The position numbers were made by a program, and so were the translations under genes. A stretch of 64,000 bases of DNA from positions 86,924,001 to 86,988,000 of the forward strand of contig NC_092348.1 in the NCBI RefSeq assembly GCF_963676685.1, in the 5' to 3' direction. The notes under the pieces are model-generated. The model saw only the letters and a program-made list of their open reading frames with translations. It did no database searches and was not told the origin of the DNA. Positions 29,714-64,000 of this stretch are shown here, piece after piece (within the stretch, counting starts at the first letter, position 1; each line of letters begins with the position of its first letter). The stretch is from Mytilus edulis. Its lineage: Eukaryota.

Positions 29714-32700
29714 ATGATAGATGTTCGGAAGCTGTTAGCAGTTATCTGTATATTAAGTTTGTCTTTCGGGCAAGGTAAGTTTACCTTGTTTACCTGTCAC
29801 TGATATAAAGTGTTCAATTATCTCTATTTAATCTTTTTTCCTGCGTAAACCGTAAAACATTGTCTGGTAAGCTGTGAAGAAGTCATCCAATGACACGCGC
29901 CTTATTATCAACAATCTTTTTATCAAAGAACAAACTTTGTTGTCAACCGACGTTTTCTTATATCATCTGACAAATTATATGTATCAAACTGATATCGCAG
30001 CGCCAGTAATATAACGACATATAAAGCTGCACCTTACATTAATAGTGACAATAGTCAAAATAAGACCAATACAGAAGATCGCATGGTGATCTATTGTAGA
30101 GAGTTGTCTCTTTAGCAATAATACCACATCTTTTTTTAATATTTTGATTCTGTTTCGTCAATGTATCGAGTAACGTACTAAAAAATATTAAAAAAAGAGA
30201 AGAAACAATAAAACTTGACAATACTGTAATAGTCTGTTCCTTCTGAAACACATTAATGTTGTGTGTGTTTTTTTTTTTAAATCATTTGAATTTCAACTAA
30301 ACCGATAGACCAACTATATTTTTATAGTTCCCGAATTCATATTAAAAATGAATGGATTTATACAAATTCTATTAAAGAAATATATGTAACACTAATTTAA
30401 ATAAATAACGAATCGCTAAAAAGAACAAACTAGGTATCATAAATATAAGCAACATAAGAAAATAATGTAAACCTTTGAAAAATTGATTGATTTTAATTTC
30501 AAAACAAAATGTGGTATGACTGCATATAATACAAATATCGACCAGAGATCAATTGACATAGATGTAAGTAACTGTATGTTAATTGTGCTACCTACAACAC
30601 TAAACTTCAACAAAAACACAAGTTTTAAGTTAGATGGGTCTAACATAAAAAATGGTTTCTGATTTCTTTTAAAACCTATTAGACTGCAAATGTATCATGA
30701 AATAGTTGAGTAACTTTATGACTTTTATGTAATGATTTACATTTTGATAAATTTAATGTAATAATTTACATTTTGATAAATTTAATGTAATAGTTTACAT
30801 TTTGATAAATTCAATGTAAATAATTTACATTTTGATAAATTCAATGTAATTATTTACATTTTGATATATGTAATGTAAGATTTACATTTTGATAAATTTT
30901 ATGTAATAATTTACATTTTGATAAATTTAATGTAATAATTTACATTTTGATAAATAGGTCCTCCTGATAATATAGGAAGAGAGTTTGTCGTGTCTTTTAT
31001 GGAGAATGATGAATACGGCAATGTTTTTCCGCTGGAATTGTATGTAACTACGTCAGAGAAGCATCCTGTCCATGTAACAATTACATCACCAAAATGGACG
31101 AAACCTTCAGTATCAGAATCCGTCACTGTCACACCTGGACAGGTAGTCAGGGTCAATATAAGTGACGAGTTCCGTATGAAGGGGAGTTTGAAATCCTCTA
31201 AAGCACTCCTTGTTAAGTCGGATGGTGACATTGCTGTTTACGGAGGAAACAAGGAGGACTATTCTAATGATGTGTTCTGTGGTATTCCTACAGATGCATT
31301 AGGGAACGAGTACTATGCTATGTGCTACGGACCAGCGTACCGTAAAACTGAACTTGGAGTAGCAGCCACACAGGACAACACTGTAGTTAAAGTAACGCTT
31401 CCAAAGGCTCCTAACATGACTGTCACATACAATTCAACGACTTACCATGGAGGAGATATGATAACTATAAACTTAAACAAATACGAAAACTTCCAACTAC
31501 AAAGTATCGGTGATTTAACGGGTGCACATATTGAAGCCACACATCCTGTTTCGGCATATAGTGGTAATATCAAAACAAACATTGGTACGGGGAAATTTCA
31601 AGACCATCTGGTAGAACAGCTTACGCCTGTTGATACTTGGGGAAAAAAATTCGTAACAGCTCCAATTCCAAAAAGAACCGTCGGGGACTACTTCCGTGTT
31701 GTAGCGAGTGAAGACAACACTGTAGTCAATATCGCTGGCATGCCATCCTTCACCCTTGCAAAAGCAGGTGAATGGAAGCAAATTCAACTTCCGTCTAAGT
31801 CGTACAAGTCAATTAATGCATCAAAGCCTGTACTGATGGCACAGTTTGTTTTAAGTCAACTGGACAAGTATGAGCCGGCTGATCCGTCTATGATGATTAT
31901 CCCACCTTATGAATTGTTTAATTCCGGATATACTTTTGCTACACCAGAATACTCACATCCCGAATTTTTCAAGTATGAAAATCAAGTTTTGCTGGTAATC
32001 GAATCTTCTAAGAAAGATGGACTACTACTAGACGGAAAACCTTTACCAAAGGGAACAAAATGGAACCCAATTGAAGGAACAACTTTAGTCGGAACGTATG
32101 TCGATATTCCAAAAGGATCACATTCAGTGGTACATAAAGATTCCTACACAATATTTGGAAGCTACCTCTATGGTCATGCCTACCATGAATCCTATGCTTT
32201 TCCAACAGGAATGAGATTAGCAAAGATAAACGCGGTAAGACTAAAGATACATTCCATATGTTTCCTTATTTCTCATATTCGTATGCATATTTTATATATT
32301 TAATAATTTATTACACTGATGTGGTTTCCGATTGCTCTTCTCTTTTTTTTTTTAATTTGAGTGCCACATGTAAGTCTTATGTTGACGACAGGCACATGTG
32401 GCGTACTTAATCTGTTATCTTTGGTGACTTGTTTCTAGTTAAACATGTTTGTAGGTATAAACACTTTATTACAGGATTATAATTGGCCGATCCATACGTA
32501 TTATAATTTTTACATGATACAAACTAAAATCTATTTTATTTACATTTTGAAATTTTAAACGAAAACGACTACTTTCTTTATATGGCCAATGGTACATTTT
32601 CGAATACTCATTTTACACTAAAATGAGATGTGATTTAAAATATATTTTGCAGCCATGTAAACCTACGACATCAGTTGATGGTGATGGTTTAGACAATGAC

Positions 32701-35700
32701 TGCGATGGTAAAATAGATGAAGAATTGTGCACAACCGATAACAAGAAACAAGGCAAGTGTCTTCGTTGTGTAAAGTACTTGTTCATAAAATGTCCTTCTT
32801 GCGTTGACGACCCATTGGTGGCCTTCTGCTGCTATCTGCTCTATGGTCGGGTTCTTGTCTCTTTGACATATTATCCATTTCCATTCTAAATTTTATCAAA
32901 TATTGTGAATGATTAGACCGTCTGGATGGGGTTTGCAGAATAGAGAATACTGGGGCAAAGTGCAGAACAAAGGGCTAGAAAATAGGGTGTTGGAATAGAG
33001 AGATTAGATAACAATGAACAAAATTGAGAAAACAGAGAAAAATGGTTAAAAAAAAACCGGAACACAGAATTAATGGACCTTCTTTCCTGACTCTTTATTT
33101 TGACCATCAATAATCGTGAAATTATATGCGAAAAGTATCAGGTAGAGGCCTAATAGTAAATCATCTTAAACTTATTATCTTGTAATAATTATAGTAAATC
33201 ATCTTAAATTTATTATCTTATATATTTGAGAAGATTTTTTGTCAGAAATTCAAAATACTGGTTGTACAGTAATTGCTAATATTTCTTTCTTACTATTATT
33301 TTGTCGTATAGATGATGATGGTGATGGAAGAATTGATGAAGACTGCACCGATCCTACTCCTGGTACATATAATGTATTAATTATTCTATCGTGAATTAAG
33401 GATGAGGCATAACACAAAACAGCTAAATATGTCATTTTTTTCTTATATAAAAAATAATTAATTAAACAACCTATAGCGAACTTTAAACAATGTATGGAAC
33501 ATTTTAGATATGGAAAAGGAATTTAAAACGAATTTATAAAATATCACGGTAAAATGTCATATAATATAAGCTGCTTGTGGCATTCAGCCATACAGATCAT
33601 CTGAATTTCCCCTACACTTGAGTTTTTATTCCTTCGACATGTGAAGTGGCGGTGTGTAATTATCAGTGTGTCTGTTGGCTAGTTTTCAATACAGAGAACC
33701 TGGTCATGAGTTAACTATGAGCTAACAATAAGTTTAATAGGGTTTCTGATGATTAGACTTTTATACCTCACCTTAATAAACTGATTATTTCTACTTGATT
33801 CGTTTTAGTTGACGGTCTTTGGGGATCATGGGGTCCATGGTCTGGCTCTTGTTCAGTTACCTGTAGCAAAGGTGTACTGTTTCGAAACAGGTCATGCGAC
33901 GATCCAGCACCATTATATAATGGAAAGAACTGTATCGGCAGCGATCAGGATACTAAGCCTTGTGACACAGGAGTAAATTGTCCACGTAAGTAAAAACATG
34001 TAACATACTTTGTAATATATATGCTGTGTTTCAAATTGAACAGAATGTCTATCTGACTGAGTATAACTTTTGAAGTCTTTCTGTTGTAATTTTAAGAAGT
34101 AATCTGCATTTGAATCGTTTTACATTCTACAACACTATAGTCATTACAGATATCATGAGTTGTACTTAGCTTAGAATACGTGACCAATTTTGCTCGTGTT
34201 GTATTTAAACTTATGCTTACTTAAAATTTATATAAAGTGCTAGCCCTGGAATTCCGCTGTATTTCTCTATAAAACCATCAATCGTAAATATGTATAGTTC
34301 TGAACAATGAGTTATGTATGCATTGCTATTACAGTTGATCCTTCTGTGGCATGTAAAAACAATCCACACCAACTGTTAGCCAATCCAGTTGACTGTGCAC
34401 AGTATTACGACTGTAGTCAGAAGACATCCTCAATGGGACAAGACTATCTTAAGGAATGTAAATATCCAAACCTGTTTTCAACGGTGACCAAAAAGTGCCA
34501 AGACTTTCAAACGGTTAAATGTGACAAAAGGCCTGAACCACAGGCACCTTGTAAGTATACATTAAAATACATTTGCTGTGTATATCGTCCGTTAAGAATA
34601 ATTTCAGGACGGAATGTTCTTATCATTGCGCCAGACACTAGTAGAAATCGTGTTGTTCTACGGGTCATCTGCTATCATTGGAAACGGATTCGGAGTCTCG
34701 TGTTGCTCAACCTTAAGATTTGTGTAGTGTTTTCTAGACTGTTGTTTACCTGTTTGTCATTATCAGGTTGTATGTCATGTCGTTTATTTATTGTTTTAAT
34801 TCTCTCCTCTTCTGTCTTTATTTCTTTATAAATATCGACAATTCTATATTTACATTTTTAGTTTCTACTTATCCCATGAAATTATATACAAATTGTCTGT
34901 CTACCACTATGTCTGAAATCTGAAAATTTATTTATATAGAATCTTTTTCCAGGTGAATACGACCAGAACAAATGTAACGGCACTGATCCAACATGCAATT
35001 GCCCAGCACGTCTACCTAGCTGTATAGCAAAACCGGATGGAGATCAGTTGTTTCCTGGTAAAAAAGGAGATCCTGCTTATATTACTTGCTTCAAGAATAG
35101 AACAACGATAGCCAAGTGTAAACCTGGCTATTTTTTCGAACCAAGAGGAAAGATCTGTAGACCAATGAATGCAGGTATGAAAAACGTGTAGGTCAATGAA
35201 TACAGTTACGCCAGCCTGACGTGTAAACTAATGAATACAGGTACGAAATACGTGTCGATCAATGAATACAGGTGTACCATACGTGTAAACAAGTGTTTAC
35301 TGGTATGGAAAACGTGTAGATCAATGAATACAGGTATACCAGACGTGTAGTGTTTACAGGTATGGAAAACGTGTAGATCAATGAATACAGGTATGTCAGA
35401 CGTGTAAACCAATGAATACTGGTACAAAAACGTGTAGATCAATGTATCCAAGTATACCTGACGTGTAAACCAATGAATACAGGTATGGAAAACGCCGGTG
35501 TAGATCAATGAATACAGGTATACCAGACGTGTAAATCAATCAATACAGGTACGAAAAACGTGTAGATCAATGAATTCAGGTATGTCAGACGTGTAAACCA
35601 ATGAATACAGGTACGAAAACGTGTAGATCAATGAATACAGGTATGCCAGACGTATAAACAAGTGAATACAGGTATGGAAAACGTGTATATCAATGTATAC

Positions 35701-38700
35701 AGGTATGCCAGACGTATAAACAAGTGAATACAGGTATGCCAGACGTATAAACAAGTGAATGCAGGTATGGAAAACGTGTATATCAATGTATACAGGTATA
35801 CCAGACGTGTAAACATGTGAATACAGGTATGGAAAAAGTGTAGATCAATGTATACAGGTATACCTGACGTGAAAACCAATGAATACAGGTACGAAAGACG
35901 TGTAAATCAGTGAATACAGATGAAGCAGGAGTATGGGCAATTTATTATAAAAATGAACTATTTTATGAATACGGGCAAATAAAAAGATGCACGGCACCTG
36001 AAATTATAAGTAAACGATCATTGGAATAAATGACTGACGAATACAGGCATGAATGACGAATTAATGCTTATAACTATAGATGCAACAAAAAAAACTTATA
36101 GACAAATGAATGCAGGTGGAAATTCGTGTTGGAAAATAACTGAGATGTTTAGAGTAGATAAGAGAAATTCTTTTTCGTTTTATGTGTGTTTAGAATTTAT
36201 TGGTTCATTTTAGTTTTATTTTTTTTTCAGCGGTTGTGCGATTTTTCTGTAGATCGCATTCAGCAGATAAAGTACCAGATATTCACAATTGTGCTAAATA
36301 CCAAGACTGTTCTAAAACCCCCACAGCATCGGAATGTACATATCCAGATCTGTTCTCAACTGTTACAGGCAAATGTGAAAATTTCACCACAGTCAAGTGT
36401 GAAAAACGACAAGAACCTCAAGCTCCATGTAAGTGAATCATATTTGTATTTGTTTACATGTGTATAAAATGTATTTAAACTTTGTATAATTTAATTGTAA
36501 TAATCGAGGATCTCAAAATATACTGGAATAACCACTGTTGTGTTATCTTTTAAATTGGTATACCTGTATTAACATCGGAGATAAGTTATTTTTTATTCTG
36601 AAAATATATGTATAAAAAAAAACATGTGATTACATCAATGACACAACCCCTAAAAGACATGTTTTGTGTTCATTTTACAGGCGAATATGACCAAAACCTT
36701 TGTCCAAGTGGCAACACAACTTGTCAGAAATGTCCAGAAAGATTGCCAAGTTGTATTGGACTGCCTGATGGAGACAACCCAATACCCAACCACAAATGGA
36801 CAAGCCGATATATTACTTGTTATAAAAATAGGACCCTCCTCCCAGTTCACAAATGTCCTGCACCAAAGATTTATCACCCAATTAAAAAAATATGTACAGA
36901 GGATATTCAGCCTAGTAAGTAAAACTGTCTTTCATATGATTATTTCAATAACTGCTCGAAAGAGCGTTGCGGTACTGCAATGTGATATGAATTTATTTGT
37001 GATGGTTTCTATAAGTTAATCTATAGCCTGTTAACAATGAGGTGAGCTCTTGGGGTTGTGAGTTTGAACCGTGGCAAGTGCGTTTCACTCTGATCTTACT
37101 TAACTAGACATATCCGCTCCCTGCCGAAAATTCGTAGTGTTCTTCGGTGGTAATCCGGCTTCCTCTATTAACAAAAACTGAACGCTGTGATATAGCCAAG
37201 TGTGTTGAAAGTGGTGCCTAACAACAAAACATTGCACCTGATTGTAGTAGATTGTTCCTTTGATATATAGTTATTTGTTTTTTAAACTTTTTTTCATAAG
37301 ACCTTTGTCACATATTTGTCAACCGTACGGGTCCCCTTTCTTGTCATATTATGAGTGCATTTGAAACCCACAGTATACTGACGTACATATGCACATGCTC
37401 ATGGTTTGTATTGGATCTTGTGTTTCAGCTTATGTTCAGTGTTTTCTATAAAGTTTAAACTTTGTATGCCTCATATATGGGCATTATGTTTTCGGGTCTG
37501 TGCGTCCGTTCGTTCGTCCTTCCTTCCGTTCGTCTGTCTGTCGCGCTTCAGGTTAAAGTTTTTGGTCGAGGTAGTTTTTGATGAAGTTGAAATCCAATCA
37601 ACTCGAAACTTAGTACACATGTTCCCTATGATATGATCTTTTTAATTTTAATGCCAAATTAGACTTTTGACCCGAATTTCATGGTCCACTGAAAATAGAA
37701 AATGATAAAGCGAGTTTCTGATTAAAGTTTTTGGTCAAGGTAGTTTTTGATGAAATTGAGGTCCAATTAACTTGAAACTTAGTACACATGTTCCTTATGA
37801 TAAGATCTTTCTAATTTTAATTTCAAATTAGAGTTTTTACTCAAATTTCACGGTCCATTGAACATAGAAAATGATAGTGCGAGTGGGGCATCCGTGTACT
37901 AGGGACACATTCTTGTTAAATGTGTTATGCTACTGAATCTTAATGACGACATGCAATTGATCTCAAACTGACCATGGAAATTATACCTCTTTACTTAAAT
38001 TATAATCCTTCGTTAAATACACAATTCCGTGTTTGAACTGGTCAAATTTCTGTCAGATTGTAAATAGATTTGTGAAATGCATATACAAATGTAGTTTCAT
38101 TTTCATATTGCTTTTAACCTTAAAGTTAACTTGAAACTTGAAACTTAACTTCAAATATGTAGAAAAAAAAGGTAGAAGGGATCATTTCACGATTGCTTAA
38201 ACTGAAAGTTTCATTAACCACATTCCACCCATATATGCTTATAAAATTTAAGTAATCTAATTATTAGTAATAAAGTTGAAAACTCAATATGACCCCTTGA
38301 TATGCAACCTTTGTGACACTGACATACCACTGTGCCTCGGGTACCAAAATAACTTGTGACCCTTACATCAAGACATCTACATCAATTGCTTGGTCTGCAG
38401 AAATCCATATCGCAAATGCTACTGTGCATAGGCATAGTATTGACAAAGTTTCAAAAGAGGGCTCTGCGTTTTGTAACTAACACATACAGAAATGCCTTAA
38501 GCGTGCGGGTAACCTGTTCAATGACACCACCTGTTGGTCACCTGTGCAGCCTCTTTGACAGAAGAAAAATAAACGACTGTGATTGGTAATGCTGTGCAAA
38601 ATTCATAGAACCAGACAACAAATGGAAGTTTTTAACGACCTTGACTTGCTATACAGCCCTTGCACGGTCGGTAATAGAACCAGAGACTTCAAAAAGTTTC

Positions 38701-41700
38701 TGGGAGACTTTTATACTAACTAGTATAATATTCCAAGATAGAACACGCAGAGACATATAATACATATTAATATATTATACAAGTATGGACACAGACGCAA
38801 ATTGTCAGGGGGGTTAAAGGTCGTTACAAATGTATTGAAAGCTAGACTGGAAATGTGTATTAACAAATTGAGTTGATGTGTACATGTCTTCATTCAAATG
38901 CATTGACTGATAAAAAAAAGGGGGGCTTCAACTTCCACCCCTCTCTGTGAATTAGTTGTTTGAGTGTTTGAATATGGAGTTTGTTAATAAATAGCTGCAC
39001 TGTAAGCGCATGATATGTCTTGATTCCTTTTAAGCTTGCTTAAAGGTTGAACTATTTTGTTTTGTACAATTATTAGTCTATTTGTTTTCTCATTTCAGTT
39101 GTTTTATATTTGTCATTTTAAGGTCTTTTATAGCTGACTGTGCTGTATGAGCTTTTGTCATTGTTGAAGGCTATTTGGGGACCTGTAGTTGTTAATCTTG
39201 TTTTAAATTTTGGAATGTAGCTGAAGTCAACAGACATAGACAATTCACCCAAGTTTTATAAAATGATGTGGAAGTGTTTATGTGAATAATTGAGATGGGA
39301 AATGAGGAAAGTGTCAAAGTGACAACAACCCAACCATAGAGTAGACAACAGCTGAAGGCCTCCAATGGGTTTTCAATGTAGCCAGAAACTCCTGCACTTA
39401 AAGGTGTCCAAAAACTATAAAATCCCTTCTTTTTTTAGCATATATAAAAATTCATAACACAGAAATGTATAATCTGAAATTTATTACAATCAAAAGGGAC
39501 CTTAGGTCAATGGTGTAAACAATTCACCAAAGTTTAATTAAAGGTGATGGATGCATTTTTGTGTTATTGTTCAAAATTGGAAAATTCTCTCTTTTTTAAG
39601 GATAAAATCTCTCTTCATAACATGATAATGAAAATTCTAAAATTTATAAAATCGATGTGGAGCTTATGTCAATAGATATAAACATTTCAACAAATTTTCT
39701 TGAAAGTAGGGGGAAGTGTTTTCTAGTTATTGTCTGAAGTGTGGATGATGGACTAATAGACAACAGTATACTATATTATGTTGTGTGTGAGACATTGGTA
39801 TAATAAAATGGTTTCGAATGAATAATGATTAGAAACTGTTTAATGCAGTTATTGAGGGAACGACAGTGAAGAAATTCCTGAGATCAATGCGTTTGAATCC
39901 TAAGAATTCAATTTTTGTTGAAATGAAACAAAGTTCAATTTTTGACCCTTTGGATCTTAATGTAAACCAATTTGAAAAAGGGACAATCCTGTGCAATTGA
40001 ATATTTCTTGTAATATATTATATTATATTAAATTATATGTCTGGAACACGTAAAGGTTGCAGAACCCAGAGACATATATACACATATATACATGTGTATA
40101 TAGCAGCCACTATGTTCCGTCAGTTACTTTGTTCCGGCGGAACTTTTCAACTAGTTATTTCGTTCCGATGGAACTTTCCAACTAGTTGTTTTATTGGCGA
40201 GTGCAGTCGAAAAGTTCCGGAAAAAAGTAGCTAGTTAAAAAGTTCCCGGAACAATGTATCTAGTTGAATAATTCTGGCAGAACAGAACAACTAGTTAATT
40301 CGGTCAGAATGTTGCCTTCATAACGAAATAAGTTGTAATTCATTGTTATACATTAATCTGAAATTGATATTTTTAAAAGTAACCACATGAGGAGGAACTT
40401 TTGGGCTAGTTTGTTAGTTCCGGTTTTGACTTAATATATTTCCCAAAGAGGAACTTTGTGACTAGTTGATATGTTCCTTTTGACTTTTGTAATCAGTATC
40501 TTGGTTCCCCTTTGAAAGGTTCAAATATAATATGTTACGCTTTTACTTTGCATCAATTCTCCAAATGGAACTTTGTGACTGGTTGGTAAGTTCCGTTCAG
40601 GGAACTTTTGGGCTGCCGGGTTTGTTAGTTCCAGTTTTGACTAATTTGGCAAAAAGGAACATTCTAACTAGTTGATATGTTCCGTTGGAACTTTTCAACT
40701 AGTCACTTTGTTCCGGTGGAACTTTTAAACCAAAGGAAGAGCATAGTAACTAGTTATTAAGTTCCTCCGGAACTTTTCGGCTAGACTAGTTAGTTCTTTC
40801 CGCCCGGAACTTTCCAACGTCGGAACAAAAGAGCATTTACATAATATATGTCTCTGCAGAACCTAAAAGAAAATAATAAAAAAAAAAAGACATTCAAAGG
40901 AGTAGGTCCGGTAAGGACCGATTTTGGCCTCAAATTTCAGGTTCGTCTAACGAAAGATTTTGACCACTTTTTAAACACTTAAGTGTCTATTTTATTTGAT
41001 TCAATTAGTTTCTGTGAAAGATTTTAACTAATTTGGTCATTAAAAACGACCAAATTCAAGCTGAAATATGAAAACTCTACCAAATATGCCGAAAAATGTC
41101 ACTTTTCAGATGGTTTTTGTCAAAAATGAAAGTGGCCGCATCCGTGTTCATCCTCAACCTTTATATATGTTATGTTCTCATCATCAAATACAACTTACAT
41201 TTCAATATCAAGGATGAACACGAATGCGGCAACTTTCGTTTTACACGGAAACCGTCTAAAATTTAATTAAAATGCTAGAATATTGAAGATTTCAGTAATT
41301 TAGCATGACTTAATGGTGCTAGTACTGATATATGTGCATTGTATGGTCAAAAACAGCCCATATTTATCTAGCATAAGCATGCTAGTGTCCAATAAATAAC
41401 TAATAGTTTACATTTTAACAATTTTGTAAAACTGCTATATTTTGGGGCCAAAAAGGGGTCTTACTGAACCTACTCCTTTGAACAGTTAGCTTGAAATAGC
41501 TCCTAATTAGAATCAAGGATGTATGTCAGATATACATCCTTGTTTTAATCAATTTAATATCTGAACTAAATGATCCTAAATGAATTAGACAGTGAACCAA
41601 AGAAAAAGAAAAACTTAAACAAAAAGTAAAATCACAAAAATACTGAACTTAGAGGAAGATCAATTGGGAAAGTCTATAATCACATGGCAAAATCAAATAA

Positions 41701-53700: not shown

Positions 53701-56700
53701 CATGGTTTTGAACAAATCTACCTGAATATTCTTATCAGATATTCGATAACACGATGAAATTAACATTGAGCATATAGGTAAGGGTTTGGTAGTACAGACA
53801 ACTACAGCGTAAAAAAAACTGTGCCACTTCACATGTTTTACTTCTTTACGTTCGTTAAATCAGAAGATAAAAACAGAGAACATCGAATCGATTAACTGCG
53901 TCTTTTATACGCTTTCTTTTAATCTTATTCACAGTTACTTTAAAACGCAAAGACGACAAACATTAAGTTTTGTACGATGACGGAGCGGACCCAAAAAAAA
54001 TCTGAAAAAAAAAAAATTCTTCAAAAAAACGTCAAAAAAAGAATTTGAGTCGGCGGGTTTATTTTGGGTCGGTCGCGTTTGGGCAAACATACAATCTTTT
54101 TATTTTGGCCTAGTCTACTAGATCCTTGGTCGAGCTTAGGAAGTACTCTTATTTTTAGCTCAGTCAGTATAAATGCTGCTTTGTAATACATAGGTTCCTG
54201 TTTCTAGCCCATGGGGAGAAATAAGAAATAAGTGATTTTGCAATAGAATCATGCTATCCTGTCCTGTTACATTTGTAATTAAGATAAAGTGTTGAAAATT
54301 GAATGGCTAAAGTTCAAAACCTACCCTGAGATTCAAACAAGTATTGATATGTTTCTCTTTATAAGCGCTTATGTCTGTATCCCTCTTTCTGTCTCCAATG
54401 ATAGTTAAATAAGAGTTGAAAGTTTCAATGAAGTGTGAAGCTAAGGACTTATCTATTTGTGATACATGTTCCATTTATTTGTATGAATCCATTGTAATGC
54501 TCAAGGCTTAAATATTTGTAAATCTAAAACAAACTATATAGATTGAAGAGTTTTTAAAACAAAGAGAACCTTTCATGAAAAGTCATTGATTTTTGGTATA
54601 ACAGAGTTTCTTTGTTATTGTCTGATGACTATGCATGTATTGCATGTTAAATTTGTGAATAGGTCAGTATGGCCAATTTACCAAGCTCAGGCAATAGTGC
54701 TCTCTGTAACACTTCTTGGTTATCTTTCAGTTGACATACCAGATTATTGTACAGCCCATCCCAGCGCTGTTCTTCCAGACCCAGATAATTGTGCTCACTA
54801 CTTTAATTGCTCTGATCCCACAACAGCCACCATAACCAGAGGAGCAGGTCAGACTCCAGGAAATTACAGGAAGGAGTGTCACTATCCAGACTTATTTGAT
54901 GACAGTATTAAACTATGTAATAAGTTTGAAATGGTCAACTGTAGTAAGAAACCAGAACCACAAGCTCCTTGTAAGTATATGATGAAAAACATTAGTAATA
55001 TAAAAAATGATTAATTAATAAATTTCTTTAAAAAAAAATTACATTATTACATGTGTATTGTATGGGACACTTCTAACTTATTTGAGAAAAAGAAAAATAA
55101 CTTTTGACATGATTTGTTAAATATTGATATGAGGAGGTGTGGTATGAATGCCAATAAGACTACTATTCTACTAAGACTAAATGATATGCATGTAAATGCC
55201 TGTAGTGCTTTCAACAAAGAGCAAATCCGATACTGTATAGTCGATTACAAAAGGACCCCTCTAAGACAAAATGTGAAACAAGAAACCAATGTCCAGATTT
55301 ATAAAAAAAACAATATGATAGCAACCAACGACTTGGACAGAATTACAGGCTCCTGATCATACTGATGATCCCTGTTAAAAACATATTCTCATGACTCATC
55401 ACGGTCATGTCTTGTAATAATTTTATACAATTTAGTTTTAGCAACATATTTTGAAATATTTAGACTTCCTGTTAGTAACAGTAAACAATGGCCATATTAA
55501 TCTTGTTTGGATTTATTGCCTATTTAATTACACAATTTTGAAATATCGCTACATTGACAACAACACGTGGGATACTCTATATCATTATGTAATGTTGAAC
55601 AGAAAATGAATCAAACATAGTGCAATGCAAATGAAGTTACTAAATTTAGAGTTAATCTATAATTTTTCGAATTGTCTTTAACTTTAAAATGGTTGTAAAC
55701 TATTATAATGGTAAGTGTATAAATAAAATGTGTTTTTAAATAGAAATTAAATTTGTGTAACATGTATGTAAGTACAATGTCAGTGTACAGTTTTATAAAG
55801 TTTCTTCCTAATTTGGACAACACTAATAGGGCACACCCCTACCACTTCGACTGGGTTCCCTTTGGCCGGAGGTACTACTTCCAATCGCGTCGGGAATGCC
55901 GTAAAGTGGTTTACTGTCGCAGAATTTCTTGGCAATGTTGGTTGAACTGGAAATGGTGGTGGGAAGGATTTATGTTCTTTGTATCTTACTTCTTTTAACT
56001 TTAATTTGCTGCAGGTTTAAAATAGTACTGGAAATCTATCTTGGCTGTTTTGTGTCATCTCCATTGACTTTTGAAAGATCCTTTTTAAGGTTTCACACTA
56101 AAATAATTTTACATTTAATTTTCTGATGGCACAGAATGATGGTACATATAAATCTTGATATATTGGCCGTCCTGTTGTAGAAATGTAGTCCTCTGTTTGT
56201 TCTTCATATAAGTTTCCTTTTGTTTGGTGGTTTCTTGGCAGTAATTGATGGTATCAGTTGTTTGTTGGCTTCTTGGAATTCTTCGTTCTTGCTCGGTATA
56301 GAGATGGCCGTGGGGTCGGCGCTGTGTGGTATAGGCGGATCCGGGGATGCAGGGGTTCAGATGGAATATCAAAAGATAAATAAAGAGCTGCTGAACCAAC
56401 GCCTCTTATGTTTTGTGCTGGTAGAGTTCCCTTAAGTGGATATCTGGATATCTGGTATCCACTTAAGGGAACTCTACCAGCACAAAACATAAGAGGCGTT
56501 GGTTCAGCAGCTCTTTATTTAAATTTTGAAATATATATAACAATTTAAAACAAAAATATAAATAAGAAAAATCTGGAAGTGCTGATGTATAATTTTTGTT
56601 ATCACTGTTTGAATAAAATATATTGCACTAGAAATATGAAAAGGAAAAAAATATAAAAGTGTCCTTACAAATTCAAGTAAAAGGTACACAGAAGCTATGA

Positions 56701-59700
56701 ATGATGATAAATGTATGTTAAAACAATATCTTTTTTTAAATGAATGTAAGCAGCAATATAGTGAGGTTATGAACTATTTATTTCAGGTGAATATCAACAG
56801 AATTTGTGTCAAGCTGTCAACAAAACTTGTGATCCTTGTACAAAGAGACTGCCATCTTGTGTGGGGAAATCAGATGGATTAAATTCCTTCCCTGCCAAGA
56901 TGTGGCAAGCAGATTATATGAGATGTTACAAAAATAGAACAATGGCGGTCACAACATGTCCAACCGGAGAATACTTCAATCCTAGACTGGACAAATGTAT
57001 GAAAGTTGTACAACCAGGTCAGTTATTATTCTTTTGATTTTTTTTCAAAAAGCTCAGTCCATATATATTTCATATTGTAGAGTTTAAATATGTTGTTTCT
57101 GACTGCAGTGAAAGTCTACAAACTGTGCCACACTAAATATATAATATCCGTTGTCTCTTTTTCAGTTGACATACCAGATTATTGTATAGTCCACCCAACA
57201 GCCGTAATACCCGACCCTACAAACTGTGCCAAGTTTTACAACTGTTTACAGAACTTGGGCACTAAAACAGCTGTTGTATTTGAGTGTAAATATCCTGACT
57301 TATTCTCTGACGTTTCCCAGAGCTGTGAAAGATTCCAGAATGTGTTGTGTAAAACCAGGAAGGAACCACAAGCACCTTGTAAGTATTGAAGTTAATAAGA
57401 TAAAATCAGAGTTCTTTGAGGATAATTTTTTTATGTATATTTTCAATTTGATGTGTTTGATATCTGCCTCATAAGGACATCTAAAAAAAAAATTACATAT
57501 ACATTGCTTGTGATTGCTGAGGCATGTTTTTATTGTGATCCACAGATTGTGGGTTACTCAACATTTTTGTGATGTAAGGTTAAAATGATATCCATAGAAG
57601 GAAATTTTGAAATTTATATTTGTTGCTATGACAAAATTTAAAGGAGGTAATTAATAGACTAAATACTTTAAATAATATAATGTGTAGATGTATGTCAATG
57701 AGAAAGCAACCAAACAATGCAAAAATAAAAAAATGATGTATAGAGGTCAATAAACAGTCATATAACATTAAACAATAGACATGTGTCTAAACAATATGTT
57801 AAAGCAGTAAATCTTCCAGAGTTTAGAATAGATGTGAATAAATTTATAACCAAGGTTAAATACTTTATTCTTCAGGTGAATATGACCAGAACTTATGTAA
57901 GCCAGGAGACATGAACTGTGAAGTATGTCCTAAACGTTTACCCAGTTGTCGTGGACTACCTGATGGTGACGAAGCTGTCCAATCAGCTCTCTGGACAGAT
58001 CTGTATGTCACATGTCTGATTAATAGGACCATGGCTGTCCGTCATTGTCCTGTTGGTCAAGTGTATGATCCTACTCAGTTACACTGTGTCAGTAAAATAC
58101 CTAAAGGTTAGTTACTACCTTGTGTTTTACAAGTATTGTATAGATGTTGCAAAAAGTGGTGGTTCTGAAGGTTTTGACCACCAACATTTTACAAAGGACC
58201 AACATGCTTTAATATTTTTCAATAGAAATAATTTGAAGACCAGCAGATTTTCTATATAATTCCACCTTGTGTGATATTGCTGTATTTTGATTGGATGAGG
58301 CATGATATTTTTTACCATTTTCTACTGGTATGTATTAAGATTTTCTTTTCTTTGCCAGTGTATTTGTCATTAGAGAATTCCATCTGCCTGGGTATTTGCA
58401 AGCATCCTATTAAAATTCAGGCGAATAACATTAAAATTTGTATTGCACTTATAAAATGTAGTGGATTGTAATATATATGGCAATAGCATTTATCTGAATA
58501 TGTCCTAAAACAAAAGGTTCTTGTGAGTTTAAGTTTTATTGTATTTTTTCTAGGAAATATCGATGCCTTCTGTCTGGCTAACCCCACATCTATAGTGCCA
58601 CACCCAGACACTTGTGGTCAGTACTACAACTGTTCAGCCATGTCCAAATATGGTCATCATCTCCAGGAATGTCAGTACCCAGATCTGTTTGATGATGTCA
58701 GTCTGACATGTAAAGACTTTGAACAAGTCAATTGTAACAAATCAAAACATGAACCAGAGGCCCCATGTAAGTACTTTAACATAGTCAATAAACTATATCT
58801 TTAAATTCAAGAGATAGAGATTCATTAGCATTTATGCTTTCTTAAATGTCCAGAATTAAGATCCAACAAATCCTTAGAATCATTATGCCATTAACCATTC
58901 AAATTTATGCCTAATTTTTCTATGGCAAAATGCAGTGTTGAATTGAATGAATGAATGAATTCTTTATTTGCCAAGCAGTAATTACATACTATTGCAACAC
59001 AAACATATTTACATTGTGACACACAATAAACAACACAGAACAATATTATAAGATATTGCAATAGACAAATAATCAACAACTACCAATTATATGTGATCTA
59101 ATCTGCCTTGCAGATTTCGAATAATTACACAATTTTCCAACTAAAGATCTAGAGTTTGAAACTAAAAGAAACACAGAGATTTGATTGATGTTTCATTAAA
59201 TATTTCTGAACACAAAAGATCTACAAAAAATACTAGAATACCAAACTGAAAGATCTGTTTAAAACAAAAAGGTGTTTAAAAGGAAAGACTTTTAGATCAA
59301 TAAACATTTAATCTTTAATGGCATAAGGTGATTTCATGTTTACATCTTTACATATTTAATAATGCATGTCTAAATGTGCTGCAAATTTTATATTTAAAGA
59401 CAAATTTTGTTTTCACAGGTGAATATTTACAGAACAGATGTAATGCATCAGATACTAGTTGTCTCCCCTGTCCTAAACGTCTGCCATCTTGTGTGGGACA
59501 TCCTGATGGAGACAACTCATTCCCCAACAAACTATGGATGTCTGACTACATCACTTGTTATAAAAATAGAACATTGAATGTGACACAGTGTAGCCATGGT
59601 TACTTCAATCCAAGGACAGTCAAATGTGAAGATGCTGTTCCTAAAGGTAACAGATAACCACTAATCATTGTGTTTACTGAACAGGTTTCAACCATTACAA

Positions 59701-62700
59701 ATAAATTTTAGTAACAAATCAGCTAAGGAACCATGCGGTAGAGGGGATCAGCAAGGAACAAGTCACTGTAAAATATTAATACACAATTTAATGCAATGTT
59801 TCTGTACATCATTTATATGTAGAAAAGACCAAGAAACAACTAAAATTAAAGTCTTTAAGATTCATTCTGAGTACGAACTATGATTTTTATCCAAGACTTA
59901 TTTTTCTAGACTTGCAAGTATTTTAAATAAAAGGGACAAACATTTGATATTTTGATTGTTAAAAAGCGGATGATATTAGAATTCATAATGCCAACCAGCC
60001 ACTAAATAGTATTAGAAAGGCAAAAACCATTTTGTACCCTGACCATTTCGTACATTGACCATTTCGAAGCTCATGGAATATTAACATGTAATACCATTTT
60101 GTACCTCATTGAAGATTAATATGTATGCCATTTTGTACCCCCATGGAAGATTAATATGAATGCCATTTCGTACCTCATGGAAGATTTATATGTAATACTA
60201 TTTCGTACCTCATGGAAGATTTATATGTAATACTATTTCGTACCTCATGGAAGATTTATATGTAATACTATTTCGTACCTCATGGAAGATTTATATGTAA
60301 TACTATTTCGTACCTCATGGAAGATTTATATGTAATACTATTTCGTACCTCATGGAAGATTTATATGTAATACTATTTCGTACCTCATGGAAGATTTATA
60401 TGTTTGCCATTTCGTACTTCATGGAAGATTAATATGTATGCCATTTCGTACCTGATGGAAGATTTATATGTAATACCATTTCAAACATCATGGAAGATTA
60501 ATATGTATGAAATTTCCTACCTCATCGAAGATTGATATGTAATACCATTTCGTACCTCATGGAAGATTACTATGTAGGCTTTTTGTACCTCATGGAAGAT
60601 TATTATGCATGGCATTTCATTTTTATGTGTAACATGTCTTGGTTTATCATACAAGGAAAGTCAAGGCACTTTGCACATATCTCTATTCATAATGTCATTA
60701 CTGAGAATCAGGATTGTACACAAGGCGTCCATAGAGATGTTAAAGGCGGCTTACACAAATATCAACATCAACGTACTTCTGCCGGTGGTCAAATGTTGCT
60801 TTCCGTGTTGTACGAGCCTGCTTTTTTTGCATCTTCTTCAGTTTACCCTCTGATACCAAAAAAAACCTTTAAAAACATGAAAAACTGTACAAAAATATGA
60901 TAGGAAATGGCTTACATGTATTAAGTCCATGAGGTATGATGCATTTGGCCCATTGGGTACAAAATGGATATTATCGTGGGTACAAAATGGTAAATGTTAG
61001 GTACGAAATCACAGATTTGGGTATGAAATGGCAGAGGTACGAAATGGTCAGGAAACGAAATGACTTGCTTTCTTAGAATGGACACAAGAGGAATATGATG
61101 TGACATCATAATCAATGAGCCAGCCTGTTTAATAACATGTTTGATTTAATAATAACTTGACATGTTTAATAAGCTTTAAAAAGAGGTCTGCATGCATAGT
61201 TCTTTAAGATAAGATTTAGGAAAGAATATTTGTTACTGCTTGATCAATTTATTTAAATTTTCCCATCCCCATTCCATTTTATAAAACGCAGATAATTGTG
61301 CTTCCTGCAATGTTTTAATTTTGTTTTGCAGTTGATGTACCAGACTACTGTACAGCCCATCCCAGCGCCGTTCTACCAGACCCAGATAATTGTGCTCACT
61401 ACTTTAACTGCTCTGATCCCACCATGGCGACCATAAACAGAGGAGCAGGTCAGACTCCAGGAAATTACAGGAAGGAGTGTCACTATCCAGACTTATTTGA
61501 TGACAGTATTAAACAATGTAATAACTTTGAAATGGTCAACTGTAGTAAGAAACCTGAACCACAGGCTCCTTGTAAGTATTTGAAAAACATGTGATGAAAA
61601 AAAAATAATGTCTTTAATTTTCTAGGTGGACAGATACTATTAGTTGCTTCTTCCTTACCCCTAGCTAATAAAGGCAGTATAACTTTGTATGTAAGTACCA
61701 TATTTTACAAGGATTTGATTTAAAGAATGAAGATAGAAAAAGAAAGAGTATTAGGTTTTTGAATTGCATATGTTTTTAGCTCACCTGGCCCAGAGGGCCA
61801 AGTTAGCTTTTCTCATCACTTGGCGTCCGGCGTCCGGCGTCCGTCGTCGTCCGTCGTCGTCGTCCGTCGTCGTCCTGCGTCCGGCGTTAACTTTTACAAA
61901 AATCTTCTCCTCTGAAACTACTAGGCCAAATTTAACCAAACTTGGCCACAATCATCATTGGGGTATCTAGTTTAAAAATTGTGTCCGGTGACCCCGCCAA
62001 CTAACCAAGATGGCCGCCATGGCTATAAATAGAACATAGGGGTAAAATGCAGTTTTTGGCTTATAACTCAAAAACCAAAGCATTTAGGGGAAATCTGACA
62101 TGGGGTAATATTGTTAATCAGGTTAAGATCTATCTGCCCTGAAATTTTCAGATGAATCTGACATTCCCTGGTTAGGTTGCTGCCCCTGAATTGGTAATTT
62201 TAAGGAAATTTTGTTGTTTTTGGTTATTATCTTGAATATTATTTTAGATAGAGATAAACTGTAAAAAGCAATAATGTTCAGCAAAGTAAGATCTACAAAT
62301 AAGTCAACATGACCAAAATGATCAGTTGACCACTTTAGGAGTTATTGCCCTTTATAGTCAATTTTTAACCATTTTTCGTAAATCTTAGTAATCTTTTAGA
62401 AAAATCTTCTCCTCTGAACCTGCTGGGCCAAATTATTTGAAACTTGGCCACAATCATCATTGGGGTATCTAGTTTAAAAATTGTGTCCGGTGACCCCGCC
62501 AACTAACCAAGATGACCGCCATGGCTATAAATAGAACATAGGGGTAAAATGCAGTTTTTGGCTTATAACTCAAAAACCAAAGCATTTAGAGCAAATCTGA
62601 CATGGGTAAAATTGTTAATCAGGTGAAGATCTATCTGCCCTGAAATTTTCAGATGAATTGGACAACTTGTTTTTGGGTTGCGGCCCCTGAATTGGTAATT

Positions 62701-63807
62701 TTAAGGAAATTTTGCTGTTTTTGGTTATTATATTGAATATTATTATAGATATAGGTAAACTGTAAACAGCAATAATGTTCAGCAAGGTCAGATTTACAAA
62801 TAAGTCAACATGACCAAAATGGTCAGTTGACCTCTTTAGGAGTTATTGCCCTTTAAAGTCAATTTTTAACCATTTTTCGTAAATTTTATATATCTTTTAC
62901 TAAAATCTTCTTCTCTGAAACTGCTGTGCCAAATTGATCCAAACTTGGCCACAATCATCTTTGGGGTTTCTTGTTTAAAAAATGTGTCCGGTGACCTGGC
63001 CATCAAACCAAGATGGCCGCCACGGCTAAAAATAGAACATAGGGGTAAAATGCAGTTTTTGGCTTATAACTCAAAAACCAAATAATTTAGAGAAAATCTG
63101 ACATGAAGTAAAATTGTTAATCAGGTCAAGATCTATCTGCCCTGAAATTTTCAGATGAATTGGACAACCTGTTTTTGGGTTGTGGCCCCTGAATTGGTAA
63201 TTTTAAGGAAATTTTGCTGTTTTTGGTTATTATATTGAATATTATTATAGATTTAGGTAAACTGTAAACAGCAATAATGTTCAGCAAAGTAAGATCTACA
63301 AATAAGTCAACATGAACGAAATGGTCAATTGACCCCTGTAGGAGTTATTGACCTTTGTAGTCAATTTTCAATCTGCTTCCTTTGTTTAATATTCACATAG
63401 ACCAAGGTGAGCGACACAGGCTCTTTAGAGCCTCTAGTTTTTTAAAGAAAACAATAGATAAATGTTCTAAAAAAAAAACCAAACACATTCAGTAAAGTTA
63501 ATTGTAAAAATTTGTTGCATAGTGGCAGTTCTTATAATTATATTATTGTATAACAACAAAATGCACATTATTTTAGGTGACTATCAACAGAATTTGTGTC
63601 AAGCAATCAACAAAACCTGTGAGCCTTGTACAAAGAGACTTCCATCTTGTGTAGGAAAATCAGATGGATTAAATCCTTTCCTGGCCAAGATGTGGCAAGC
63701 AGACTATGTCAGATGTTATATCAATAGAACAATGGCCGTCACAAAATGTCTAACTGGAGAATACTTCAACCCTAGACTGGATAAATGTATGAAAGTTGTA
63801 CAACCCG
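29714..63807 (+). CDS. Very large secreted protein: signal peptide, FCGBP/IgGFc-binding N-domain, acidic DNDCDGxIDEE motifs, TSP1, at least 22 chitin-binding type-2-like domains (3'-incomplete)
   Basis: 27 phase-compatible coding exons (6616 nt, about 2205 aa): 29714-29774 (MIDVRKLLAVICILSLSFGQ), 30958-32234, 32653-32752, 33312-33362, 33809-33985, 34335-34550, 34953-35174, 36231-36428, 36681-36914, 45053-45250, 45857-46084, 46886-47125, 47440-47670, 48169-48381, 49144-49374, 49793-50005, 50231-50458, 50922-51161, 52278-52508, 54731-54970, 56787-57017, 57166-57378, 57876-58106, 58554-58766, 59419-59646, 61332-61571, 63577-63807. No in-frame stop was seen, and the last exon ends at a donor. Confidence 0.88.
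30735..30957. repeat. 29-bp minisatellite (atttacattttgataaatttaatgtaata), about 8 copies, ending in the splice acceptor
   Basis: The last partial unit reads ttacattttgataaatAG|GTCCTCCT, so it supplies the acceptor of exon 30958. Confidence 0.92.
30958..32234 (+). CDS. Exon encoding the FCGBP N-terminal (IgGFc_binding) domain
   Basis: Hallmark motifs: DNIGREFVVSFMEN, PTDALGNEY, DLTGAHIEATHPVSAYSGN, DHLVEQLTPVDTWGKKF, DPSMMIIPP, YLYGHAYHESYAFPTG. Confidence 0.9.
32653..33362 (+). CDS. Two small exons with acidic putative metal-binding motifs (GDGLDNDCDGKIDEELC and DDDGDGRIDEDC)
   Basis: Exons 32653-32752 and 33312-33362 are joined by a GC-AG intron. The motif resembles the Pfam Cu-binding_MopE (putative metal-binding) repeat consensus DGxDNDCDGxxDE. 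Confidence 0.8.
33809..33985 (+). CDS. Thrombospondin type-1 repeat exon (absent from the ORF track)
   Basis: VDGLWGSWGPWSGSCSVTCSKGVLFRNRSCDDPAPLYNGKNCIGSDQDTKPC has WxxWxxW, CSVTC and RxRxC. 177 nt, phase 1-1. Confidence 0.93.
34335..46084 (+). CDS. Three divergent two-exon chitin-binding modules
   Basis: X exons have six Cys in peritrophin-A spacing (C-x13-C-x5-C-xn-C-x12-C-x7-C) and end EPQAP. Y exons begin CEYxQN and contain RLPSC...C[YF]KNRT. An 8.1-kb intron (36915-45052) separates modules 2 and 3. Confidence 0.85.
35163..35920 (+). repeat. About 31-bp minisatellite built from an exon/intron junction (about 24 copies)
   Basis: Alternating units aatgaatacaggtatggaaaacgtgtagatc and aatgaatacaggtatgccagacgtgtaaac. 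The first copy is the authentic exon end AATGAATGCAG|gtatga at 35174/35175. Confidence 0.92.
37035..37225 (+). mobile_element. Degenerate tRNA-derived SINE (RUDI/V-SINE-like)
   Basis: B-box-like gagtttgaacc, then ...ggtaatccggcttcctc...aaaactgaacgctgtgatatagcc...gttgaaagtggtg, which resembles the V-domain and tail of bivalve SINEs as I recall them. Confidence 0.5.
38748..40043. mobile_element. Non-autonomous TIR element with 7-bp TSD (P-superfamily-like)
   Basis: TSD gaacacg at 38741-38747 and 40044-40050. Left TIR cagagacatataat; right TIR attatatgtctg (2-nt deletion). Confidence 0.75.
40067..40856. mobile_element. Non-autonomous TIR element with 7-bp TSD (P-superfamily-like) and internal ggaactttt...actagtt repeats
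   Basis: TSD cagaacc at 40060-40066 and 40857-40863; perfect 13-bp TIR cagagacatatat/atatatgtctctg. Confidence 0.88.
40898..41477. mobile_element. MITE, Kolobok-like termini
   Basis: Left aggagtaggtccggtaagga and right tcttactgaacctactcct; flanks tcaa / ttga are TTAA-like. Confidence 0.7.
42005..42662. mobile_element. Foldback-type MITE with ~150-bp imperfect TIRs
   Basis: aggttgggaacaaaccctctatatggtgattatacctgtatagag...ggggcagaatggcatt is mirrored by aatgccattctgccc...ctctatacaggtataatcaccatacagggggtttattcccaacct. Confidence 0.85.
42850..43284. mobile_element. Hairpin-ended non-autonomous element (possibly Crypton-like)
   Basis: 138-bp near-perfect palindrome at 42850-42987 with a GGCGAAGCC apex, followed by a module bounded by atttatcctgattt / aaatcaggataaat with a CCAATCA box near its end. 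Superfamily assignment is a guess. Confidence 0.6.
43455..44257. mobile_element. PIF/Harbinger-like MITE
   Basis: tta|gaccctgttcacactag ... ctagtgtgaacggggtg|tta: 3-bp TTA TSD and Harbinger-type TIR. Confidence 0.85.
46886..52508 (+). CDS. Chitin-binding super-repeat block 1 (exons A1 B1 C1 D1 E1 F1 A2 B2)
   Basis: Exon lengths 240, 231, 213, 231, 213, 228, 240, 231; all phase 1-1. Confidence 0.88.
51214..51724. mobile_element. Second hairpin-ended element (same architecture as 42850-43284, different sequence)
   Basis: Imperfect palindrome at 51214-51349 (gatatatcatgttatggagg...cctccataacatgatatatc), then a module bounded by aattacac / gtgtaatt with aaccaatcaaaat near its end. Confidence 0.6.
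52588..54110. mobile_element. Non-autonomous TIR element with GGCC termini and 3-bp TSD (Zator/Harbinger-like)
   Basis: tag|ggccacaattaaaaatattt...gtttgtccaaacccgaccca ... gggtcggtcgcgtttgggcaaac...tttttattttggcc|tag. Confidence 0.75.
54731..63807 (+). CDS. Chitin-binding super-repeat block 2 (exons A3 B3 C2 D2 E2 F2 A4 B4)
   Basis: Same exon-length series as block 1, with near-identical exon sequences. Confidence 0.88.
56377..56521. repeat. Perfect palindrome, 66-bp arms and 13-nt loop
   Basis: 56377-56442 is the exact reverse complement of 56456-56521; loop tctggatatctgg. Confidence 0.95.
60015..61072. mobile_element. TIR element with an internal 35-bp minisatellite
   Basis: tta|gaaaggcaa...ttgctttc|tta. 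Subterminal motif ccatttcgtacc on the left and ggtacgaaatgg on the right. The unit tttcgtacctcatggaagatttatatgtaatacta repeats about 15 times over 60060-60605. Confidence 0.75.
61773..63440 (+). mobile_element. HINE/DINE-like element with three ~502-bp internal repeats
   Basis: tttttagctcacct subTIR, cgtc microsatellite, repeats starting aaaatcttctcctctgaa at about 61899, 62401 and 62903, 3' aggtgagc subTIR and hairpin aggctctttagagcct. Confidence 0.88.
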
Positions 63808-64000
63808 GTAAGTGTTTTTCTGTATATATCAATTTGTTCAATCAGCAACTTATGAAATCAGGTTGACAAAATTCTACCAAACATGTACAGATTTTTATGC
63901 CCCATTAATGGGCATTATGTTTTTTGGTCTGTGCGTCCATTTGTCCATTTGTTTGTCTGTCAGTTCTTTCATCCGTCCATTCATTAGTCCGTCAATCATT

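Follow-up and report, generated by a model that had tools for sequence, protein, structure and literature searches.

Vertebrate FCGBP combines a signal peptide and an N-terminal FCGBP-N domain with a long cysteine-rich tandem array of VWD-C8-TIL units; most invertebrate FCGBP-N proteins contain no VWD domain according to the survey of this family, and the text of its Fig. S5 carries one CBM_14 label, on an Aplysia FCGBP-N protein (Lang et al. 2016, PMC4948705). An AT-rich stretch of 64,000 nt in the 1.37-Gb genome of Mytilus edulis (C5:86924001-86988000; hereafter the window) contains the 5' part of a giant gene that shares this general layout, but in which the array consists of CBM14-fold modules instead of VWD-C8-TIL units. 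Its predicted product has an FCGBP-N head, 41 tandem units of two modules each, denoted A and B, and a tail that ends in a canonical CBM14 domain.

Other described systems share parts of this architecture. Alternating A/B units, about six in number, are present in proteins of the gastropods Lottia gigantea (Lotgi1|231869), Nucella and Bulinus, which, however, have no FCGBP-N, thrombospondin type 1 (TSP1), LDLa or F5/8 type C (F5/8C) domains and only one-seventh of the units of the mussel protein. Insect peritrophins are described as secreted proteins with tandem CBM14 domains, sometimes combined with Pro/Thr/Ser-rich (PTS) stretches; the mussel protein differs in its strict two-module unit, the cysteine knuckle and four-cysteine form of module B, the missing canonical aromatic residue, and the head and tail domains. 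The Aplysia protein EHEP (PDB 8IN3) is a molluscan protein with tandem CBM14 folds that is reported to bind polyphenols and not chitin, but at 25 kDa, with three domains, about 20% identity and no B-type knuckle, head or tail, it is a distant counterpart. Gel-forming mucins (Ciona Ci-GFM1 and protostome mucins with F5/8C) are described as giant secreted mosaics that include CBM14 and, in the protostome ones, F5/8C, whereas the mussel model has neither VWD assemblies nor a cystine knot, and a phase 1-1 scan retrieved only a 52-aa Thr/Pro exon. The shell proteins Pif and BMSP are described as carrying one or more VWA domains ahead of a chitin-binding domain; no VWA domain was matched on any mussel exon or orthologue scanned. 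The giant protein would work like a peritrophin-mucin hybrid and is not FCGBP proper, a gel-forming mucin or a Pif/BMSP protein.

In our assessment, the odds are about even (a probability of roughly 0.5) that the gene product is a long secreted matrix scaffold in which the array serves as a rod and the tail anchors the protein on chitin. This reading builds on the exon structure and the domain order, on a CBM14 fold supported by both sequence profiles and predicted structure, and on conservation among bivalves, purifying selection and some spliced RNA; the rod shape would follow from the structural models.

Structure and continuity of the giant gene

The coding part of the gene within the window comprises 27 exons on the forward strand, from the start ATG at 29714 to the end of the last in-window exon at 63807, which join into 6,616 nt (2,205 aa) that are open throughout. 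A first-pass annotation of the window had read a spliced frame of about 2,200 aa that is still open at the window end, and all the parts it named were recovered at their places. Exon boundaries were set by splice consensus and reading frame, and the model was extended into 100 kb downstream of the window. The exons and the main tail features are as follows (X1, X2, X3 and X21 are sequencing runs; P0003, P0007 and P0008 are related database proteins; types X, Y and Z denote recurring kinds of units).

29714..29774, +, coding exon 1, signal peptide (20 aa): most hydrophobic stretch of the model; same N-terminus in P0003
30958..32234, +, exon 2, FCGBP N-terminal (IgGFc_binding) domain, aa 21-446: Pfam PF17517, E 9e-63
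32653..32752, +, exon 3, acidic DGDGLDNDCDG motif, GC-AG donor: MopE-like PF11617, E 5.5e-4, below cut-off
33312..33362, +, exon 4, second acidic DxDxDG motif: weak EF-hand-like matches, E about 0.01; common to the headed paralogues P0007 and P0008
33809..33985, +, exon 5, thrombospondin type 1 repeat: Pfam TSP_1, E 6e-13
34335..34550, +, module A1 (six-cysteine CBM14 fold)
34953..35174, +, module B1 (cysteine knuckle and four-cysteine CBM14 fold)
36231..36428, +, module A2: RNA contigs in X1, X2 and X3
36681..36914, +, module B2: RNA cover in X1
36915..45052, +, 8.1-kb intron: neither a hidden module nor an alternative start found
45053..45250, +, module A3: X1 contig with exactly these bounds, continuing at both ends
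45857..46084, +, module B3
46886..47125, +, module A4 (type X): joint to B4 (GT..AG) in X1, X3 and one X21 read
47440..47670, +, module B4 (type X): joint to A5 in X1 and X3
48169..48381, +, module A5 (type Y)
49144..49374, +, module B5 (type Y)
49793..50005, +, module A6 (type Z)
50231..50458, +, module B6 (type Z)
50922..51161, +, module A7 (type X)
52278..52508, +, module B7 (type X)
54731..54970, +, module A8 (type X)
56787..57017, +, module B8 (type X)
57166..57378, +, module A9 (type Y)
57876..58106, +, module B9 (type Y)
58554..58766, +, module A10 (type Z)
59419..59646, +, module B10 (type Z)
61332..61571, +, module A11 (type X)
63577..63807, +, module B11 (type X), last exon of the window
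63808..64000, +, intron running off the window, followed by 66 further exons, including 30 A/B pairs
C5:87035745-87035885, +, LDLa exon: E 1e-8
C5:87053570-87055158, +, F5/8C, three exons: two match, E 2e-9 and 2e-5; the first found by tblastn
C5:87056741-87056899, +, Thr/Pro exon, 52 aa: found by phase 1-1 scan
C5:87058915-87059090, +, terminal canonical CBM14 and stop: E 3e-11, the best CBM14 of the gene

The full model consists of 93 exons (20,844 nt, 6,947 aa, ~782 kDa) with a single stop codon at the end and none inside; it extends 71 kb beyond the window and is about three times as long as the part that the window shows, with the array itself reaching 61 kb past the window, as found in a genome search with one B exon. 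The domain order is signal peptide, FCGBP-N, acidic motifs, TSP1, 36 A/B units, LDLa, five units, F5/8C, Thr/Pro exon, canonical CBM14 and stop, so that the CBM14-fold domains number 83, that is, 82 repeat modules and the terminal domain. The at least 22 chitin-binding-type domains that were counted initially correspond to the 11 A and 11 B modules of the window; the count was low compared to the 41 pairs of the full gene because the window ends within the array. Insect CBM14 arrays are known with up to about 19 domains.

All splice sites of the model are GT-AG except for a single GC donor after 32752, in the intron that follows the first acidic exon; the joints past the window are predicted from splice sites and phase. 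The 11 A and 11 B exons of the window alternate without exception and are all in phase 1-1, with each A-B intron splitting one cysteine codon. As a control for chance, module profiles built from Dreissena only retrieved 11 A and 11 B modules on the forward strand of the window, none on the reverse strand and none in any of 20 locally shuffled windows. A good acceptor site at 29660-29713, immediately ahead of the start ATG, points to a non-coding exon further 5', and a 29-bp minisatellite provides the acceptor of exon 2.

Spliced RNA supports the array joints 47125>47440 (X1, X3 and one X21 read) and 47670>48169 (X1, X3), and in a contig from X2, a B exon of type X precedes an A exon of the same type, an order that matches units 7-8 or 11-12. 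The joint 36914>45053 does not occur among the 15 of 151 RNA joints seen, and the head-to-array and tail joints are predicted from sequence. The intron 36915-45052, which the first-pass annotation had singled out as a potential break between separate genes, shows no sign of one: it contains no module and no signal-peptide-like exon, and only two open reading frames (ORFs) of at least 90 aa, neither of them module-like. Database models cross the same point, namely P0003, an M. edulis protein from another assembly (97% identical to the exon 2 product) in which the head and 8 units form one model, and Dreissena XP_052252890, where the head is joined to 31 A and 30 B modules; the head and array are also joined in the models of Mya (WAR05417) and Tegillarca (KAJ8316017). 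Further array fragments of Tegillarca bear nearby locus numbers (006023-006031), and in Sinanodonta three consecutive models contain 21, 9 and 19 units, the last one ending in F5/8C and a Thr-rich tail, with its units 15-18 matching Mytilus units 37-40 in order. Altogether, among the 229 proteins collected, 70 have the head and 6 have both the head and modules. P0003 reads XYZXY where units 4-8 of the window read XYZXXY, which is a possible difference in repeat number between individuals or an annotation skip.

The FCGBP-N head is predicted by AlphaFold to be an all-beta domain (pLDDT 92, pTM 0.91), for which a fold search returned only low-TM matches to Ig-like and macroglobulin folds (TM up to 0.17) and a PDB sequence search returned none. 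A Pfam scan of 32 of the 41 A exons, 33 of the 41 B exons and all remaining exons of domain size, apart from those for the signal peptide and the Thr/Pro stretch, produced no match to VWD, C8 or TIL, and neither did a scan of the Dreissena orthologue. GDPH autocleavage motifs are a feature of vertebrate-type FCGBP, and there is none in the 6,947-aa model; neither VWD (D1-D2-D'D3) assemblies nor a C-terminal cystine knot were found, the model ending in CBM14 instead. Across the entire model, the only hydrophobic segment is at the N-terminus and there is no membrane segment, suggesting that the protein is secreted. A phase 1-1 scan in Mytilus retrieved only the 52-aa Thr/Pro exon; the Sinanodonta orthologue has a Thr/Ser/Pro stretch of about 870 aa. 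The acidic motifs that were initially described as metal-binding are indeed present, whereas their matches to MopE and EF-hand profiles remain below threshold; they and the LDLa domain may bind calcium.

The A/B unit and its ligand-binding residues

Module A is a CBM14 domain with six cysteines (in 40 of the 41 copies), a pattern shared by the terminal domain. Module B combines a small cysteine knuckle with a CBM14 domain of four cysteines that lacks the Cys2-Cys6 pair (as assigned by the disulfide pairing given in eLife 2023), and the whole module has seven cysteines in 39 of the 41 copies; together with the cysteine split by the A-B intron, each unit contains 14. The Pfam CBM_14 profile matched all six in-window module exons tested singly (E 5e-6 to 1e-3, five above the curated cut-off), in agreement with the original domain assignment, and in a scan of 32 A and 33 B exons, with near-duplicates left out, PF01607 matched 31 and 30, respectively (E up to 0.05). 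The array is composed of 9.3% Pro, 9.4% Cys and 5.4% Tyr, and the full model of 8.7% Cys. Of the 41 B modules, 36 contain the motif N-R-T, of which the Dreissena protein has 26 copies; the 101 N-glycosylation sequons of the model suggest that the array is glycosylated.

AlphaFold modelling of two P0003 units (pLDDT 93.7, pTM 0.77) suggests fixed packing between neighbouring modules. When this model was used for fold searches, the top 11 Foldseek and top 8 VIA matches were all CBM14-fold proteins, with both modules covered; they include EHEP, chitotriosidase, Blo t 12, Avr4, Der p 23 and tachycitin, with middling Z scores (3.8-6.8). EHEP was the best match by structure (Foldseek E 1e-9; VIA-align Z 6.8, rmsd 3.3, 63 aligned residues) and also by profile search, and the ESM Atlas yielded only leads below 0.9, to generic CBM14 clusters.

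Chitin binding is reported to require Trp at Cys5+2 in chitotriosidase (Trp465), and Trp at Cys5-1 (Trp100) together with Asp at Cys5+1 in Avr4. In the mussel array, as regards these hevein-type residues, an aromatic at Cys5+2 is present in one of the 41 A modules and none of the 41 B modules, and Trp at Cys5-1 in none of the 82; the Dreissena repeats similarly have no aromatic at Cys5+2 (0/30 and 0/31). The terminal CBM14 keeps Pro, Gly and Leu after Cys4, Asp at Cys5+1 and Tyr, rather than Trp, at Cys5+2, all of them sites important in chitotriosidase and Avr4. The CBM14 fold alone does not equal chitin binding because EHEP and Der p 23, according to eLife 2023, share this fold and do not bind chitin. 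The first-pass annotation had proposed that a chitin-binding array replaces the vWD array; the CBM14-fold array without VWD domains holds up, whereas the "chitin-binding" label is unproven because the canonical aromatic is missing in 81 of the 82 repeats and the top structural match, EHEP, binds no chitin.

Relatives, array evolution and genomic surroundings

In a midpoint-rooted tree of 26 selected heads, the four array-bearing heads and two array-less Mercenaria heads form one clade (99/97), apart from 16 TSP1-rich paralogues; this clade splits into Mytilus and Tegillarca on one side and Mya, Dreissena and Mercenaria on the other, a topology that fits a single fusion before the split of Pteriomorphia and Heteroconchia. 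The two Mercenaria proteins (P0001, P0002) within it represent split models or losses of the array. The database length limit of 5,000 aa hides full-length relatives. Crassostrea gigas K1PRD3, denoted 'IgGFc-binding protein', is suggested by its name and matches to be a piece of the oyster orthologue, as a lead only; the oyster 'IgGFc-binding' settlement genes were considered and set aside, being mostly zonadhesin-like, with no chitin domain mentioned.

FCGBP-N-like matches number at least 74 genome-wide, many of them clustered on C10, C11 and C12, so that the domain has expanded greatly in Mytilus. The only other large array belongs to a headless gene on C3 (~98.587-98.615 Mb, reverse strand), which has a signal-like start, CBM14 and 11 A/B units, as well as a 353-aa exon of several short B-like repeats; none of the FCGBP-N-like matches is near it. 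This gene resembles gastropod proteins and may be the counterpart of the headless gastropod arrays.

Units 4-14 read XYZX XYZX XYZ, with exons 83-98% identical in DNA (46886-63807 and the adjoining downstream sequence, L001), whereas the introns of the near-duplicate exons can be aligned over no more than some tens of bases. The array exons evolve under purifying selection, with pS of 0.21 and pN of 0.037 (ratio 0.17) across 32 near-duplicate exon pairs. Of the intron flanks, 61 of 64 score at or below the 95th percentile of random intron pairs (13), the best reaching 37, whereas simulated copies diverged by 18% score at least 95 in 95% of trials. The simplest reading of this pattern is homogenisation limited to exons; the alternative is very fast intron turnover. 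The near-identical trimers of Sinanodonta have expanded independently because all of them match Mytilus unit 3 best, and colinearity of units with Dreissena was not recoverable. Exon A31 is followed by three incomplete duplicates of an A exon, taken from its 3' end together with the donor site and in one case carrying a stop (L004:2200-2460), and the A34-B34 intron contains an intronless ORF of 516 aa for an M20 peptidase in antisense orientation (L005:1041-2588, reverse strand).

Elsewhere in the window, two paralogous genes on the forward strand (3391-5263 and 18299-20440) encode a signal peptide, leucine-rich repeats, LRRCT, one membrane segment and a short tail, with no TIR match in either. 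A 330-aa Lys/Glu-rich ORF (9937-10926, reverse strand) lies inside a 153-bp tandem repeat and has no useful Pfam match; a 24-bp minisatellite of 30 copies adjoins it (10977-11687). Further intronic and intergenic minisatellites are located at 35156-35919, 60058-60601, 16199-16910 and 30723-30955. Downstream of the giant gene, at window-equivalent positions 151740-153915 (reverse strand; L009), there are two ORFs that we take, by their motifs, to be remnants of retroelement reverse transcriptases.

Function and place of action

Under the scaffold reading, the last, canonical CBM14 domain would anchor the protein on chitin, judging from its binding residues, whereas the repeats themselves would bind chitin weakly or not at all. 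The 41 A/B units would give a semi-rigid rod, locked by disulfides and N-glycosylated, which acts as a spacer or cross-linker in a secreted layer of chitin with mucus or mineral, and the FCGBP-N head would contact mucus or matrix proteins. The first-pass annotation had proposed a scaffold in which the array itself is the multivalent chitin binder; a single gene that joins an FCGBP-N head to a CBM14-fold array, with a product that is likely secreted, agrees with that proposal, but the array would probably bind chitin weakly, if at all, and the tail domains (LDLa, F5/8C and canonical CBM14), which lie outside the window, alter the likely mechanism.

The place of action seems about evenly split between the gut lining and the mantle or shell matrix. 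Among the 24 sequencing runs listed, three are recorded as RNA and contain exon 2, and all three are metatranscriptomes of invertebrate guts from a single study; in two of them, the exons are covered at depth 3-9 and spliced RNA is present, while the depth in X1, which is presumed to be RNA, is 8-114 and X21 has almost no exon reads. Runs X4-X14, with small shares, do not enter into this evidence. The bivalve stomach is described as having a chitinous gastric shield; the passages of the literature on the shipworm crystalline style that we consulted name no such protein. On the shell side, Lottia 231869, a headless A/B array, is listed as a major acid-soluble shell protein (PMC3374290). Haliotis idb_1745, as described, has 23 chitin-binding domains, a signal peptide and no FCGBP-N and occurs in all six fractions listed; the reported best match of this protein and of the Cepaea shell protein 14003 is oyster K1PRD3 (28% and 30% identity, respectively). 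The mytilid mantle rim is reported to be enriched in peritrophin-A domains. These reports all concern proteins and domains other than the product of the giant gene. An attempt to assign the gastropod shell proteins by score to the giant gene or to the C3 paralogue failed, the scores being equal within a few bits.

Several observations weigh against the anchored-rod scaffold. The terminal CBM14 exon, on which the anchor depends, is joined by the logic of splice sites and phase, with AATAAA signals 98 and 183 nt past the stop, and the Sinanodonta and Dreissena models stop before it. The A modules have an invariant Tyr at Cys4+2 and Phe or Tyr at Cys5+3 (41/41), a possible alternative binding face; an aromatic at Cys5+2 is present in 5 of 19 and 4 of 21 Sinanodonta A modules; and binding residues are reported to vary among CBM14 proteins (eLife 2023). 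The gut signal is of low depth and derives from a single study, and in any tissue a 21-kb mRNA will be over-represented at its 5' end when libraries are random-primed. Poly(A) libraries would under-sample exon 2, which is separated from the 3' end by ~20 kb of mRNA, and the kind of library may thus account for the gut bias. The shell evidence concerns headless gastropod proteins, which may be closer in layout to the headless C3 gene.

The strongest competitor, which we consider a serious minority possibility, is that the array itself binds chitin multivalently and, like a giant peritrophin, cross-links chitin fibrils through a non-canonical aromatic face. CBM_14 is matched on nearly all module exons scanned (31/32 A, 30/33 B), three chitin binders (chitotriosidase, Avr4 and tachycitin) are among the fold matches, relatives are found in chitin-containing shell matrix, and the avidity of 82 modules could rescue weak sites. 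Beyond the invariant Tyr/Phe of module A, module B contains Trp in 36 of the 41 copies and Tyr or Phe in all 41; these conserved aromatics may, however, be core or interface residues, and the loss of the canonical aromatic at Cys5+2 in 81 of 82 repeats and the absence of chitin binding in EHEP, the nearest structure, argue in the opposite direction.

It appears unlikely that the array is secreted into the gut as a sink that captures polyphenols of algae or other small toxic ligands taken up with the food, similar to Aplysia EHEP and held in place by the chitin-binding tail. The likeness in predicted fold to EHEP, which ranks first by Foldseek, VIA-align and profile search, the RNA in gut libraries and the richness of the array in Pro, Cys and Tyr, in which EHEP is also described as rich, are compatible with this role. 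The rank of EHEP, however, is owed in part to its three tandem CBM14 domains and molluscan origin; it is also the top match of the canonical terminal domain, and its Z score is tied with those of Der p 23 and Avr4. Furthermore, a sacrificial sink should be abundant, but the RNA depth is low. Even less probable is an immune or particle-sorting agglutinin in mucus, with the array and F5/8C recognising glycans of microbes or food particles. Chitin is not the only glycan that CBM14 domains can bind (Nat Commun 2018), an F5/8C domain is present, and FCGBP-N proteins are described as typically secreted (PMC4948705); against this role, a single gene is involved, under purifying selection, with repeats that are homogenised and not diversified, and no evidence of expression or induction that would point to it was found.

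Finally, a fusion of two or more neighbouring genes (head, array, tail) into the 93-exon model is highly improbable: although the head-to-array, B2-to-A3 and array-to-tail joints are not among the 15 of 151 RNA joints seen, several databases split the locus (Tegillarca, Sinanodonta) and two Mercenaria models of the same head clade carry no array, the 93 exons maintain one unbroken frame with compatible phases, the long intron has no start exon, the RNA runs that contain head exons also contain array exons, head and array are joined in independent models of four genera, and Sinanodonta joins the array to F5/8C with its last units in the Mytilus order.

All domains of the giant protein are known, and their fusion is already present, unnamed, among the predictions in NCBI and UniProt; no description of the bivalve gene was found in the open-access literature, subscription journals being outside the coverage. 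Automatic annotation truncates the gene or splits it into up to several models (Tegillarca, Sinanodonta, Mya and the other Mytilus assembly), and its peptides have therefore probably been credited to fragments in proteomes of shell, mucus and gut; the supplements of mussel and oyster proteomes may hold such peptides. Its 83 CBM14-fold domains compare with at most 23 in the arrays described in the literature that we encountered. With 82 non-canonical modules and one canonical control in a single chain, the protein offers a clean test of the 'chitin-binding domain' labels in mollusc matrix proteomes, and the occurrence of an FCGBP-N head on a different long array bears on the role of the head. 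A tentative extension of the scaffold reading, to which we assign distinctly less than even odds, is that a giant FCGBP-headed protein has been retained in bivalves ever since Pteriomorphia and Heteroconchia separated, with the CBM14 fold repurposed in it as a rigid two-module block. The product would be a glycosylated rod of ~200 nm (a crude estimate) that is tethered to chitin by one end and to mucus by the other, and repeat expansion and homogenisation at the level of exons would tune the length of the rod in each lineage. If so, this two-module-rod protein would be an invertebrate analogue of FCGBP made of different parts.

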